Below are positions 3,801 to 63,169 of a stretch of DNA of 64,000 bases, piece by piece. The DNA lies in assembly GCF_003334335.1 (NCBI RefSeq), contig NZ_QOWQ01000007.1. One strand, written 5' to 3'. Below the pieces are notes generated by a model. It saw only the letters and a list, made by a program, of their open reading frames with translations. It did no database searches and was not told the DNA's origin. This stretch comes from Escherichia coli (lineage in GTDB: Bacteria; Pseudomonadota; Gammaproteobacteria; Enterobacterales; Enterobacteriaceae). A program made the position numbers and the translations under genes. Positions within the stretch are counted from its first letter, which is position 1. Every line of letters begins with the position of its first letter.

Positions 3801-11783
<7,983 letters not shown>

Positions 11784-12096
11784 GCTTACCTTCCCTGAAC
11801 GAGCTAACATAAATGCGCCCTTTCTAGCACAGCGAAAAAATGTAAATCCTGATAGCAATATGATTGAAAATTAATAACTTTTCGTTAGGCAGTTTTGAGT
11901 GTGAGTTGCAAGAGGGGAGACTACTGAATAACTCAAGTTTTATAATCGAGGGGAAAATGGTGATGGCGTTCATAGCAAAACGCCCTCAACCATAAAGGTC
12001 GAGGGCGCTTAAGATGTTAAAAACCCGCTATCCGTTAAAAAACAATGTTCAACTAAGGTCAGTGACATTGCGCTAAAAAAGCGAATTTTTAGAATT

Positions 12097-12172
12097 TGGC
12101 TCCTCTGACTGGACTCGAACCAGTGACATACGGATTAACAGTCCGCCGTTCTACCGACTGAACTACAGAGGA
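12097..12172 (-). tRNA. asnT: tRNA-Asn (GUU)
   Basis: Reverse complement matches the tRNA-Asn sequence (TCCTCTGTAGTTCAGTCGGTAGAACGGCGGACTGTTAATCCG...CCA). Confidence 0.95.
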
Positions 12173-12272
12173 ATCGTGTGAACGGGGCGCATATTACTTA
12201 GCGGTACCTTGTCTGTCAACACTAAATTTCATAAGTCATTTCAATTGGTTAATTAATCTGCAAAGTTGTTAA

Positions 12273-13070
12273 TTAATGAACATTCGTCGCCGAAAACGAG
12301 TCTGTATCATTAGTGCGATGCAGTCTCTGCAAAGGATCTTGTTGATAAAATTGGCAGAAACGTTGCCACAATGAAGGGAAACGAGGAGCAAAAAGTTCTG
12401 GGGCGCTAAAGAAATATTCAGAAAGTACGGCAAAACATTCAGCAGGATCACTGGCAGCATAAGCATCAATGCTCGCCGCATTCTCGCCAACCAATTCGAT
12501 TTCTTCCTGAATGTTGTTCATTGCAGCATGAAGATCGTGTTCCCAGCCAGCAACCTCACGCAACGGAATAAAGGGAACTCCGCTGGCGCGATCGCCGTTA
12601 CGGGTGTCCAGCTTATGAGCGACTTCATGAATAATCAGGTTAAAACCAGAAGCATCAAAAGAATCTTGTATATCCAACCAGTTCAAAACGATAGGCCCTT
12701 GCTGCCAGCTCTGACCTGACTGAACAATACGTTGGTTATGCACCAGACCGATATCGTCTTCCCATTCATCATCGACCACAAATGGCGCAGGATAAATTAA
12801 GACTTCATGAAAACCATCCAGCCATTCCAGTCCTAACTCCAGAACGGGTAGGCAAAATAGAAGTGCTATCCGGCAGCTTCTTAATGAATCCAGTTCAAAG
12901 CCCTGTAAAGGAACAAGCCGCTTTTGCTGTAAAAAACGTTCGGCAAGAGTGACTAATTTGCTTTGTTCCTGTTCCGTCAGACACGTTAAAAGGGGGATCG
13001 ATAGTGCTTCCTGCCAGGGAAGGGCAGTTTGATGTGCTGATTCTTGTACTTTCCAGGGCCACTTAATCAT
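12273..13070 (-). CDS. mtfA: Mlc titration factor A (zinc metallopeptidase-like)
   Basis: ORF track 12273..13109; start trimmed to internal ATG ([11 protein letters not shown]...) giving 265 aa; HEVAH zinc-binding motif present. Confidence 0.85.
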
Positions 13071-13163
13071 CGTTTTGCTCGCAAACTCGTCACTTGAACA
13101 AAATTGCACGGACAGGGACTGTTAAAATGCCAAATTTCCTGGCATCATGGCAACCATCTGAAC

Positions 13164-13253
13164 GGAGAGATGCCGGAGCGGCTGAACGGACCGGTCTCGA
13201 AAACCGGAGTAGGGGCAACTCTACCGGGGGTTCAAATCCCCCTCTCTCCGCCA
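13164..13253 (+). tRNA. serU: tRNA-Ser (CGA)
   Basis: GGAGAGATGCCGGAGCGGCTGAACGGACCGGTCTCGAAAACCGG...CTCTCCGCCA, 90 nt with long variable arm. Confidence 0.95.
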
Positions 13254-13822
13254 CTTTATCAATGACTTATCTCCCGACTTCCCGCCTTGCTTTTCCTAAA
13301 CAGAACAATCGTAGAATATTCTTGAAGGGTTAGATCGTCACTGTTTTCTGTTCGATACTGTGACATTCAGCACTTGATCCGCTATGGATCTGACAGGAAG
13401 CTTTCGAGCGAAAATGTGCAGTTATTCAGTCGTTTTCTTATCGGTCACCATTATTCTTTTAGACATTCATCCTATGAAACTGCCGCAAAGTTGGTGGTGG
13501 GAACTGAAGTTGCGTAGAGAAGGGGTCAATAATTGAGTCAAAAAAGGAACGCGGCCGTCAGATTAAAGCCGCGGGACAAAGTCCATAATTTCCAAGAGTT
13601 GTTGAATTTCCCAGCTTTTTTGAAAGCCTTTGTATCATACTAACAAGTAAAAAAGGTTTAAATACCAAAATTAACCTGTATTTTTGATAAGTCTTACCAT
13701 TGTACGATTTACACAGTTTCTGCTCCTCCTTGTTGATAGTGGAAAGGGTGCATTGTGCACTTGCGTAAACATTTATGACGCGTTGATGTCCATGGTTCAC
13801 ATTTCCTTGTCAGGGGATCGAC

Positions 13823-14353
13823 TTATTTGCGGCGAGGCATCATTCGTAACAGAGTATTATCTTTCTGAATGTAGTGATGAAAGAGTGCTGCGCCAGCGTG
13901 AGCTGCGATTAAAAAGTAACCTATATTCGCCCAGGTTTCGTGAATATTTTTTATCAGTGCTTTAATTTCGCTGTTTGGGGTAACAAAGGGAGACACATTG
14001 AAACCAAGGAAACTCCACGATTTTCCACTGTAAGCCATCAAAGCAATCCCCAGCAGAGGAAGTGCAAGGAAGGTTATATAAAGCATGATGTGCATTAGCG
14101 AAGCCGCTTTCATTTGCCAGGCAGGTGGCGGTGGTACAATAGAAGGATCACTATAACGGTGTTTTATAATCAGGCGTGAAAACATTAACACCCAAACGAA
14201 TATACCCGCATTGTAATGTGTTTCTCGCATCAGCAGATAAGTACTACTACCTTTAGGAAACCAGCCACGGAGTTCCATCGCGGCATAGGTTATTGCAACG
14301 AAAAGCAGCGTTATCCAATGTAAATAAATTTGAGTTTTTGAGAATCGGTTCAT
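13823..14353 (-). CDS. yodB: cytochrome b561 family inner-membrane protein
   Basis: ORF track 13823..14383; start trimmed to MNRFSKTQIYLHW (176 aa); His-rich TM helices. Confidence 0.8.
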   Translation of the reverse strand: MNRFSKTQIYLHWITLLFVAITYAAMELRGWFPKGSSTYLLMRETHYNAGIFVWVLMFSRLIIKHRYSDPSIVPPPPAWQMKAASLMHIMLYITFLALPLLGIALMAYSGKSWSFLGFNVSPFVTPNSEIKALIKNIHETWANIGYFLIAAHAGAALFHHYIQKDNTLLRMMPRRK

Positions 14354-14695
14354 TTTTGTAGCTCCTGTAATTTTTACAGTCAAGCTATCCCACGAACCTT
14401 AAAAATTCCTTATACAGATGTGGTTTTAAGAATTTGTTATTTAAAAAATTGATAGTGCACATTGTAACCAGCCAATATAAGCAATGGCGTGAGCACAGGT
14501 ATCTTTCTCAGTTGGCCGTATTGTGTATGGAATCCGTTATTGGTTAACTCAATGCGGGTTAGCTTATTAATATACAGACACGTCATAGTGATGAGCATGT
14601 CTGTAGCTAGCTTGCGTTCAGTGGCGTTTGTGGATGGACCAGTGGCAGTTATGATGACTTACTAAAGCGGCATCGAGGCGTTATCATGAGAATAC

Positions 14696-15346
14696 TCAAT
14701 GAGACATCATTTCCTCGACCACTTCTTCGCTACTCAACTGATATGGATAATACGTTGGCCAGTTTTCCATTTCATTTAATAAAGATTGCTGTGAATCATT
14801 ACCCATAAAAATGTGAAAATGAGATGATTTTCGTGGTGCAATTATATGATCGCTAAATTGTATATATTTAGGGGCTTTGCTTTCAGGATCTTTACATTCG
14901 AATAAGTAACGAACGCCTTTCTTGCCTGATTTATAGGTGAGTATTTTGTATCCATCGTACTCATATTTACAGGATGTTGTTTCATTATTTCTATGGAATT
15001 CAACAATGCCGTCCTCAATGCCAATCATCTCAATATCTGTTGCATAACCTTTGTGATAATAATCTTTAATTTCAGCAAATGTTTTAGTTTTATCTGCATC
15101 CGCTTTCTTCTGAAAGACGGGGTCAAGTTTGCCACTTTGCAGTAAAGGATAAACGGATTGCCAGACTCCATCCCAGTCACTGAGCGTTCGGTTTTGTACA
15201 TTGGCATCATCAAAAACACCATTAGCAGCTTTTTGTTCGACCTCTGTTAAGGGTTTGCCGTGTGAGTGATGACCATGCGAAAAGGCAGGAGCGCTAACAA
15301 TAAAGACACCTAAAGCAACAGCCAGTTTGTGAAGACGAATCGCCAA
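14696..15346 (-). CDS. zinT: periplasmic zinc/cadmium-binding protein
   Basis: ORF track 14696..15367; likely TTG start at 15346 after GGAGGA (gives 216 aa); signal peptide then HGHHSHG metal-binding motif. Confidence 0.85.
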
Positions 15347-15520
15347 AACAGTTTCCTCCAGAGTCATTGTATATGATGTGTAATGTTATATTGTAACATG
15401 TGACAAAATGCAATAACTCTTAGGAGATGAGAGCATAGTTTTCTCAGGTATACTTATCTATCTTATTGAAATAAAATGAATTATGTTGATAATTTGAGGT
15501 TGATGACAAACGAAACATAA

Positions 15521-21477: not shown

Positions 21478-22536
21478 TTAGAACTGGTAGACGATACCAA
21501 ATGCGAGTTGGTCGTCGGTGTTCAGTCCATGAGCGAGAACATAATCACTCTTATCAAGCAGGTTGATCTGATAAGCGGTATATACGTTCATGTTCTTATT
21601 GAAGTAATACCAGGTACCGATTTCAATGTAGTTCAGACGATCAGAATCTTTGTAACCTGCTACGTCCAGTGCTTTAGAATAGGAGTAACCGATGGATGGA
21701 CGCAGACCGAAGTCGAACTGATATTGCAGAACAGCTTCGAAGTTTTGTGTTTTGTTCACAACATCACCGTCGTCGGAATTCATGTTGTGAGATTCACCGT
21801 ACATCACAGCAGCATAGACGTTGTTGGCATCATATTTTGTTGACAGTGCCCAAACTTCTGCTTTTTCACCTTTACTATCACTAGACTGGAAATCAGTACG
21901 ATCAGAGTTTGCGTAAGCACCAGCAAATGAGAAACCGTCAATAGTGTAAGTTACAGATAAACCATGGCCATCGCCATTTGCTTTGTAGTTGCCTGTACCT
22001 TCATTTTTACCCTGATATTGCAGAGCAAAATTTAGACCTTCAACCATGCCAAAGAAATCTGTGTTACGATAGGTTGCAACACCGTTGGTACGGTTGGTCA
22101 TGAACAGGTCAGTACCAGCCCATGAATCACCGCCCCACTCAACAAACATATCAGTAAATGCTTCTGCATCATACGCGACACCGACATTACGACCATAGTC
22201 GAATGAACCAAAATCTTTGTAACTCAAACCAGCATAAGCCAAACGAGTTTGGTCAGGGTTGTCTCTGTTTGATGCTTCCAGGTCTAGTTCAAACTGACCG
22301 TAACCAGTCAATTCAGGGTTGATCTGAGTTTCACCTTTCACGCCTACACGGGCATAAGAGGTATCTTGAGAATTATCGCCTTTTTCACCATTTTCACGGT
22401 CGGTCAGAATGCGCTCACCAACCATCTTGCCGTACAAATCCAGTTTATTGCCATTTTTATTATAAATTTCAGCCGCATTTGCTGCGCCAGCAACTAATAA
22501 CGCCGGGACCAGCATTGCCAGAACTTTTCTTTTCAT
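21478..22536 (-). CDS. yedS: outer-membrane general porin (OmpC/OmpF family), intact
   Basis: ORF track 21478..22566; start trimmed to MKRKVLAMLVPALLVAGAANA signal peptide; porin N-terminus AEIYNKNGNKLDLYGK and C-terminal ...AFGIVYQF. Confidence 0.85.
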   Translation of the reverse strand: MKRKVLAMLVPALLVAGAANAAEIYNKNGNKLDLYGKMVGERILTDRENGEKGDNSQDTSYARVGVKGETQINPELTGYGQFELDLEASNRDNPDQTRLAYAGLSYKDFGSFDYGRNVGVAYDAEAFTDMFVEWGGDSWAGTDLFMTNRTNGVATYRNTDFFGMVEGLNFALQYQGKNEGTGNYKANGDGHGLSVTYTIDGFSFAGAYANSDRTDFQSSDSKGEKAEVWALSTKYDANNVYAAVMYGESHNMNSDDGDVVNKTQNFEAVLQYQFDFGLRPSIGYSYSKALDVAGYKDSDRLNYIEIGTWYYFNKNMNVYTAYQINLLDKSDYVLAHGLNTDDQLAFGIVYQF

Positions 22537-22845
22537 TATGTATTCCCTTGTGATTATAATCTTCATGAATATATCAATAAGTGCCGTTATCCAAAAAAAA
22601 GCACATTTGGATACTATTCTATGAAGTTCATTTTATTTTAAGGATTACATGTAACAAATGTATTTAAAAGATTTCAAAATGTTTCTAATCTATTTAATAT
22701 AATTCGGAATTATGAATTCTAAATATAAATATTCATGAAAATTATAAATGTATATCAATATGTTATGAGTTGAGCGGAAACATAGGGGGTATCAATGATT
22801 GTTGCGCCAAACGACTGGTGTGATCAGGCGCACATTAATGAAGGC

Positions 22846-62866: not shown

Positions 62867-62951
<85 letters not shown>

Positions 62952-62996
62952 ACATCGGCCTCAAGCGGATGTCTGGCTGAAAGGCCTGAAGAATTT

Positions 62997-63070
62997 GGCG
63001 CGTTAACAAAGCGGTTATGTAGCGGATTGCAAATCCGTCTAGTCCGGTTCGACTCCGGAACGCGCCTCCA
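62997..63070 (+). tRNA. cysT: tRNA-Cys (GCA)
   Basis: GGCGCGTTAACAAAGCGGTTATGTAGCGGATTGCAAATCCGTCTAGTCCGGTTCGACTCCGGAACGCGCCTCCA. Confidence 0.95.
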
Positions 63071-63082
63071 CTTTCTTCCCGA

Positions 63083-63169
63083 GCCCGGATGGTGGAATCG
63101 GTAGACACAAGGGATTTAAAATCCCTCGGCGTTCGCGCTGTGCGGGTTCAAGTCCCGCTCCGGGTACCA
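63083..63169 (+). tRNA. leuZ: tRNA-Leu (UAA)
   Basis: GCCCGGATGGTGGAATCGGTAGACACAAGGGATTTAAAATCCCTCGGCG...GGGTACCA, 87 nt with long variable arm. Confidence 0.95.

Follow-up and report, generated by a model that had tools for sequence, protein, structure and literature searches.

The window analysed here is a 64,000-nucleotide stretch of Escherichia coli DNA (NCBI RefSeq assembly GCF_003334335.1, contig NZ_QOWQ01000007.1) that contains the tRNA genes asnT and serU. We found that the 3' ends of both genes are vacant attachment sites with no present or recent integration, and that the spacer between serU and yodB consists of four parts: an old chromosomal flank of serU (13254–13531), a minus-strand unit (13541–13662), a short variable stretch (13663–13700) and the edge of a cassette carrying yodB (13701–13822). 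We are highly confident of these two statements taken jointly. The unit is related to an element in the late region of lambdoid prophages, and its features suggest a small-RNA gene. The complete account, in which the vacant sites adjoin a four-part spacer whose small-RNA unit would have been retained from an ancient prophage at serU, stands in our judgement slightly better than even. Because serU and yodB are convergent, the spacer needs no promoter for either gene, and its length therefore calls for explanation.

Vacant attachment sites at asnT and serU

Both tRNA genes, asnT (tRNA-Asn(GTT), 12097–12172, minus strand) and serU (tRNA-Ser(CGA), 13164–13253, plus strand), were located with ARAGORN and Rfam and are intact. 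A sequence-only reading of the window had proposed that they serve as island sites elsewhere and that here they lack an integrase, a direct repeat of a tRNA 3' end and island cargo. Partial duplications of the tRNA 3' ends were sought in the spacers and in all 64 kb, and the last 17 and 25 nt of asnT and serU had no second copy at up to three mismatches. When the whole tRNAs, the 62-nt end of serU and the 40-nt end of asnT served as short-word BLAST queries, only chance matches were returned, none longer than 13 nt, and general repeat finding over 11700–14000 gave short chance pairs only. The 62-nt end of serU (13192–13253, plus strand), of which lambdoid prophages integrated at serU carry a second copy at their far end, occurs in the window just once.

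Integrase similarity was examined by tblastn, using as queries the integrase of the high-pathogenicity island (HPI) at asnT in strain IAI39 and three frames of the frameshifted integrase of the O157:H7 serU prophage. The best match in the window had E = 0.26, and none fell in either spacer. Consistently, E. coli strain 1506, which is 100% identical to the window over 11700–14000, has no annotated integrase gene beside asnT or serU. The asnT–yeeJ spacer gave no match among 50,697 phage records in a distant-mode search, and neither these records nor the searches for tRNA-end repeats revealed a trace of a mobile element in it. Six-frame fragments of the serU spacer produced two marginal matches only (E = 0.023 and 0.11) against PHROGs and NCBIfam, both judged to be chance; by tblastn they had no match in the mtfA loci of other genera, and E. 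albertii matched at the DNA level only. The repeat probes, BLAST and tblastn thus bear out the proposed absence of integrase and repeat, and no clear island cargo adjoins either gene.

The features of the serU spacer could at first sight suit a classic degraded island holding remnants of an integrase, an attachment repeat or cargo genes: it is long (569 bp), AT-rich, set between convergent genes and adjacent to a tRNA gene used by phages and islands (PMC9729726). Such an island is absent from the spacer, and we regard this explanation as extremely improbable. No copy of the tRNA end and no integrase similarity is present, the six-frame fragments reach no better than E = 0.02 and find no tblastn counterpart in the loci of other genera, and the first 447 bp of the spacer occur in essentially every E. 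coli genome.

The two junctions, like every presence count below, were scored in a panel of 5,426 complete E. coli genomes, using 300-bp probes centred on each tRNA end. The probes matched without a break in 2680 genomes (49%) at asnT and in 3856 (71%) at serU, so that the vacant state of the window is common and ordinary. Empty sites at both genes are known from K-12-like strains, and about half to two thirds of complete genomes are alike in this respect.

Occupied genomes confirmed that both genes are island sites elsewhere, as their similarity to the window breaks off sharply at the expected tRNA ends. On the asnT side it stops at 12093–12096, and the tyrosine integrase and ybt genes of the HPI follow directly in IAI39, CREC7837 and O111:H11. 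On the serU side it stops at 13253 for the island of CREC7837 and at 13269/70 for the lambdoid prophage of O157:H7, whose integrase begins 12 bp later. Where the window sequence resumes at a second place in occupied genomes, it does so from query position 89–90, equivalent to window 13192–13193. The SerU-LTIIb prophage record carries an annotated 62-nt pseudo tRNA-Ser next to the spacer, followed by the same spacer and yodB, and an Stx1d prophage has been reported between serU and yodB (PMC9729726).

A minus-strand unit in the serU–yodB spacer

The sequence-only reading had named the serU–yodB spacer as the one place where a small remnant could hide. The spacer does hold phage-related sequence, in the form of a unit of about 125 bp that a homology search identified as a relative of a lambdoid-prophage late-region element; it contains no tRNA repeat or piece of an integrase.

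This putative small transcription unit lies on the minus strand at 13541–13662. It carries a -35 hexamer TTTAAA (13662–13657) and a -10 hexamer TATGAT (13639–13634), placed 17 nt apart by the promoter scan, followed by three hairpins and the tail UUCCUUUUUU. The unit, with a sigma-70-type promoter of its own, would give rise to an RNA of ~87 nt running from ~13627 and terminating at 13540. The predicted RNA has, in order, a variable 5' hairpin, a single-stranded stretch, a GGAC-UUU-GUCC hairpin, a CGCGGC-loop-GCCGCG hairpin and the tail. The last of these hairpins (CGCGGC/GCCGCG, 13549–13572) and the U-tail after it have the form of an intrinsic terminator. The double 3' hairpin, the A/U-rich stretch upstream of it and the U-tail fit the Hfq-binding module of base-pairing small RNAs, and the single-stranded stretch between hairpins 1 and 2 would be the likely seed region.

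Published K-12 data place an RNA 3' end at this terminator. Term-seq lists an 'orphan' 3' end at 2043181(+), seen in LB at an optical density (OD) of 2.0 and in M63 glucose, and not in LB at OD 0.4 (Adams et al. 2021, PMC7815308 supplementary file 1). This coordinate corresponds to window 13540, the last U of the tail, and the sequence listed with it is the terminator of the unit; the hairpin and U-tail thus form an RNA 3' end in K-12. In Hfq RIL-seq networks, yodB.serU.IGR is a node with few chimeras (33–39), whose reads may or may not stem from the unit.

The unit is also conserved within E. coli. It is present in 5418 of the 5426 genomes and is intact, hexamers included, in the yodB-less strains IAI39, O104:H4 and NCTC86. 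Polymorphism is lower in the unit (2 variable sites per 122 bp) than in the spacer flank (21 per 225 bp; Fisher p = 0.0056). In an alignment of 23 distinct sequences, the three helices have 98.3% of their cells paired and 4 pairs are changed on both sides. The covariation score was reached by 0 of 500 shuffles, and slid controls were 38–53% paired.

Several observations weigh against an independent small RNA. A classifier based on RIL-seq assigns yodB.serU.IGR a low small-RNA probability (0.010 and 0.046), and the supplements of Cappable-seq and SMRT-Cappable-seq hold no start-site entry near the unit. The yodB stop codon lies 282 nt upstream on the same strand, and the hairpin closer to it is weak, so the 3' end could belong to a long yodB 3' untranslated region. 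These points also favour a different explanation, by which the hairpin at 13549–13572 with its U-tail merely terminates yodB distally (or acts as a back-stop for zinT), the hexamers are chance and the unit yields no RNA of its own; the promoter scan itself found fewer sites than in shuffles (4 versus 5.7 expected). Regarding the unit itself, the pairs of hairpins 2 and 3 are mostly invariant, with covariation residing mainly in hairpin 1 and one pair of hairpin 3, and the single-sequence fold is not unusual (z = -1.33). E. albertii has the promoter block of the unit and lacks its hairpin part, and the polymorphism test is a crude one based on 7 related E. coli sequences.

Nevertheless, we consider the yodB-terminator explanation, the main alternative, rather unlikely. 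The unit and its hexamers are equally conserved in genomes without yodB, where zinT's own terminator hairpin directly follows the zinT stop, and 60 phage contigs that have neither yodB nor zinT upstream show the three hairpins together with the same -35/-10 spacing. We therefore lean, by a little, towards the unit being an independent small RNA; an independent small-RNA gene of the Hfq-binding type is the best reading of the sequence features, with Hfq dependence presumed from them.

The unit also contains a 7-codon open reading frame (ORF) at 13565–13588 on the minus strand (ATG GAC TTT GTC CCG CGG CTT TAA, MDFVPRL) that overlaps hairpins 2 and 3. All phage copies retain it, as MDFVPRS or MDFVPRR; it has no clear ribosome-binding site and is probably a by-product of the conserved hairpins. 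Beyond the two tRNAs, Rfam yielded nothing at E up to 10 in the window and up to 1 in the phage copy; weak matches to sX4 and to plastid families overlapped serU and were rejected as tRNA-like noise.

Phage relatives of the unit and direction of transfer

A collinear relative of the unit lies between the tRNA genes and the holin gene in the SerU-LTIIb prophage record, matching it in two blocks of 83% and 76% identity. A degenerate pattern scan further identified 60 IMG/VR viral contigs that carry the conserved 3' part of the unit, all with phage-type flanks; the DNA pattern starts with G where the window has A, which makes the absence of host-type copies from this set uninformative. The position of the element in these contigs is uniform. 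A holin homolog lies downstream on the late strand in all 48 contigs with enough sequence, at 233–259 bp in 44 of them, and a tRNA gene on the same (plus) strand lies 373–484 bp upstream in 51 of 53. In vB_EcoS-683R6, an annotated phage, the order is Q, tRNA-Thr, tRNA-Gly, element, holin. The phage copies are therefore antisense to the late transcript in the region from PR' and Q to the holin gene; the window copy lies outside any prophage.

Host and phage copies share the positions of the -35 and -10 hexamers and their 17-nt spacing, with a different sequence between them. Hairpin 1 occupies the same place with a different sequence, hairpin 2 is invariant, and in hairpin 3 a C-G pair is replaced by U-A. 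Over 45–48 nt the host copy is 83–90% identical to the phage copies, which themselves comprise at least three terminator variants and have flanks 79–93% identical to one another.

In vB_EcoS-683R6 (extracted locus 2222–2418), the late strand just before the element also gave a match to the STnc100 family at 22.9 bits (gathering threshold 47; E = 0.019). This sub-threshold match and the minus-strand element would form a convergent small-RNA pair as in O157 prophages, and it has no counterpart in the window.

That the phage copies are diverse and yet always in one position favours transfer from phage to host. Most simply, the chromosomal copy would then have been left behind by an ancient lambdoid prophage at serU and have become fixed, its usefulness being the reason for its retention. 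The orientation of the unit relative to serU is the same as in integrated prophages. We put a phage-to-host origin at a little short of even.

The opposite direction deserves consideration, as phages demonstrably copy DNA from the serU–yodB spacer, a point that tells against a phage origin. Phages ev099, mEp332 and PhiR70_1 carry 340 bp of the locus at 97% identity, equivalent to window 13192–13531 (62 nt of serU and 278 bp of flank; extracted loci 3939–4278 in ev099 and 3941–4278 in mEp332). The captured stretch sits in the phage b region between tail-fibre assembly and an AraC-type gene, with transposase remnants following; the P-arm sequence in front of it is the one found at the border of the SerU-LTIIb prophage. 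For their own integration these phages have the integrase and attachment site of phage lambda. The captured stretch is thus the right-end junction of a former serU prophage, a fossil that travels as cargo and does not serve as the working attachment site, and it represents host DNA that moved into phage. Its homology to the window stops at 13531, ~10 bp short of the unit.

Such captures, together with the presence of the unit's promoter block already in E. albertii, lend support to the idea that the unit is a native E. coli gene taken up by lambdoid phages, which would leave the spacer without any phage remnant. We regard this idea as unlikely on balance. The diversity of the phage copies at a single place between tRNA gene and holin gene speaks for long residence in phages; the 83–90% identity between host and phage copies is unlike the 97% of the recent capture; and no copy of the unit was seen in 78 mtfA loci of other Enterobacteriaceae.

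The wider locus and comparison with known systems

The K-12 MG1655 chromosome at ~2.04 Mb is collinear with the window in reverse complement (98.7% identity over 5.5 kb). The annotations of K-12 and strain 1506 give the gene order yeeJ(-), asnT(-), mtfA(-), serU(+), yodB(-), zinT(-). The first gene past the 3' side of asnT is yeeJ (3801–11783, minus strand), which the ORF list and both annotations identify as the long allele of an inverse autotransporter adhesin (2660 amino acids). Its start is the ATG at 11783 in the annotation of the identical strain, the ORF from 11858 using an upstream TTG; the asnT-side spacer, previously drawn as 11859–12096, is therefore corrected to 11784–12096. mtfA (12273–13070, minus strand) is annotated in both strains as the Mlc titration factor (DgsA anti-repressor), and zinT lies at 14696–15367 (minus strand). 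The serU-mtfA-asnT triad is kept across 80 Enterobacteriaceae loci. A second tRNA cluster lies at the far end of the window (62867–63169; Gly-GCC, Cys-GCA and Leu-TAA, glyW-cysT-leuZ in K-12). Contigs 99–100% identical to the zinT-yodB-serU-mtfA-asnT locus also occur in two metagenome-assembled genomes, one labelled Bacillota bacterium and the other Bacteroides sp.; these are almost certainly E. coli contamination in the bins.

The corrected asnT–yeeJ spacer (313 bp, 39% G+C) is the asnT trailer and terminator followed by the upstream region of yeeJ. Read from the sequence, the terminator hairpin (11982–12006, minus strand; GCCCTCGACC..GGTTGAGGGC then GTTTTG) is G+C-rich with a T-run and lies ~90–115 nt downstream of the tRNA. 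Term-seq in K-12 maps an RNA 3' end to 2044735(+) (PMC7815308 supplementary file 1), equivalent to window 11986, in the 3' arm of this hairpin. In Escherichia sp. MOD1-EC7003, the first 139 bp past asnT are kept (87% identity) and yeeJ is absent beyond them, which fits an asnT unit ending at the terminator. A putative promoter at 12191–12219 (minus strand; TTGACA, 17-nt spacer, TAATAT), found by consensus scan only and matching 10 of 12 consensus positions, was assigned to asnT because it is located just upstream of that gene.

The serU–yodB spacer (13254–13822) has 40.6% G+C, compared with 49.4% for the window. Its first part, the old chromosomal flank, is a non-coding stretch of 278 bp present in 5422 of the 5426 genomes. 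Positions 13255–13378 are 85% identical in E. albertii, and the first 100 bp past serU have 1 variable site among 7 diverse E. coli sequences. The conserved part (13254–13378) could be serU precursor trailer or sequence of an attachment-site arm; it also contains an imperfect hairpin (GTCACTGT..ACTGTGAC, ~13336–13364) that has no U-tail. In strain ET979 the IS66-family element ISEc23 is inserted at ~13516, and the flank copy captured by phages ends at 13531; the spacer around 13516–13531 seems to tolerate or attract insertions. The third part, 13663–13700, is highly variable among the 7 sequences.

We also considered whether the spacer encodes small proteins. A 50-amino-acid ORF (13384–13536, plus strand) and an 80-amino-acid ORF (13558–13800, minus strand) do exist, and the former has a hydrophobic stretch and the marginal PHROG match (E = 0.023). 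Coding is very improbable, however, as substitutions in the shorter ORF show no third-position excess (4 of 10 among the 7 E. coli sequences), the longer one crosses the cassette boundary at 13700 and is thereby absent from 42% of genomes, and neither is annotated in any record examined.

The fourth part of the spacer belongs to the yodB cassette (13701–14695). By alignment with IAI39 the cassette is 995 bp long, with the yodB coding sequence (13823–14353, minus strand) flanked by 122 bp at its 3' end and 342 bp at its 5' end. The distance between serU and the cassette is 447 bp; the cassette contains neither repeats nor mobility genes and resembles an allelic replacement. Of the 5426 genomes, 3114 (57%) have yodB and 2300 (42%), IAI39 included, have an unrelated 222-bp allele in place of the cassette. 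E. albertii also has the 222-bp type, which makes the absence of yodB the probable ancestral state, and this allele is the more diverse of the two. Presence or absence of yodB, coupled to the HPI, has been used as a clone marker in a study of ST410 (PMC10786849). The cassette part beside zinT (~14576–14603) is a diverged copy of the zinT terminator hairpin, suggesting import by recombination from a divergent lineage. A plasmid origin of the cassette is not supported: in the plasmid collection, the only matches were E. coli chromosomes under a wrong label and a weak one of 94 bp in Citrobacter.

Beyond the cassette, the flanks vary as well. In Citrobacter, Leclercia, Raoultella and Salmonella diarizonae, serU is directly followed by a porin-like gene that corresponds to window 21478–22566, which indicates that the zinT-msrQP-hiuH-hprRS-hchA block is an Escherichia-specific insertion at this place, without mobility genes. 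Cryptic Escherichia lineages have the serU-mtfA-asnT triad in the opposite orientation with respect to its flanks, with amn-shiA beside serU and a yeeL-like gene and hchA beside asnT; yeeJ and the yodB-hprS block are absent there. No recognisable mobile-element genes in the window are involved in the triad inversion or the zinT-hchA block. The earlier description of both tRNA genes as flanked only by housekeeping genes is hence too strong, as yodB sits on a variable cassette, yeeJ is missing in a close Escherichia lineage and the zinT-hchA block is absent elsewhere. Collectively, the spacer anatomy shows how a "blank" tRNA flank is built, from old chromosomal sequence with copies in phages, a unit related to phage sequence and one end of a variable cassette.

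With respect to integrated elements, the window shares with HPI-carrying genomes the asnT 3' end that the HPI targets, its integrase and ybt genes starting at most 4 bp from the end of asnT; the HPI itself is absent and the asnT junction is unbroken. The lambdoid prophages at serU (O157:H7, SerU-LTIIb and the Stx1d prophage of O121:H7) have serU as their target, an integrase straight after the tRNA and a 62-nt serU copy at the far end. None is present in the window, which has a single serU and a single 62-nt copy. The capture seen in ev099, mEp332 and PhiR70_1 resembles the lambda gal/bio type, with P arm, 62 nt of serU and 278 bp of host flank in the phage b region, except that these phages now integrate by lambda Int and attP; it concerns the phages and not the window.

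The unit family was further compared with known prophage small RNAs. The anti-small RNAs AsxR and AgvB (EcOnc01–03) of O157 lambdoid prophages are short and Hfq-bound, lie at a 'moron' site downstream of PR', antisense to the late transcript, and combine a conserved 3' hairpin and U-tail with a variable 5' part (Tree et al. 2014, PMC4104026). Region and orientation are the same for the phage copies of the unit. The sequences of AsxR, AgvB and EcOnc03, however, contain neither GGACUUUGUCC nor the CGCGG..CCGCG hairpins and have no similarity to the unit. AsxR and AgvB are 51–60 nt long, compared with ~80–87 nt for the RNA predicted from the unit, and they differ further in that one copy of the unit is fixed in the E. 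coli core genome, K-12 included. PasA and PasC of prophages in enteropathogenic E. coli are minus-strand, Hfq-dependent RNAs with a 3' terminator, encoded directly upstream of the holin-lysozyme genes (Pearl Mizrahi et al. 2021, PMC8550237; 10.64898/2026.05.13.724894), and a 2026 preprint by Zhu, Shabalina and Storz describes divergence after integration (10.64898/2026.05.13.724894). The Pas RNAs are reported to be absent from 88% of E. coli genomes, K-12 included (10.64898/2026.05.13.724894), whereas the unit is nearly universal in our panel. Neither the unit nor its phage surroundings gave a BLAST match in the PasA, PasB and PasC loci of E2348/69, and the unit has no similarity to the nmpC/ipeX region of DLP12.

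We tentatively propose, at somewhat less than even confidence, that every E. coli, K-12 included, has an unannotated, expressed small-RNA gene at serU that derives from a lambdoid lysis-region RNA family and has a seed differing from those of its phage relatives. If the unit is indeed a working small RNA, which could be tested directly in K-12, it would be a rare instance of a prophage lysis-region RNA that has become fixed in the core genome of a model organism and is still unnamed, and it would tie the 'orphan' 3' end at 2043181 to a gene family. Among known systems, the best reading from sequence and position is that the unit family belongs to the class of late-antisense small RNAs from the lysis region of lambdoid prophages and, with AsxR, AgvB, EcOnc03, PasA, PasB, PasC and the IpeX region as the named members compared (other EcOnc candidates and PasD not compared in full), that it differs from every one of them.

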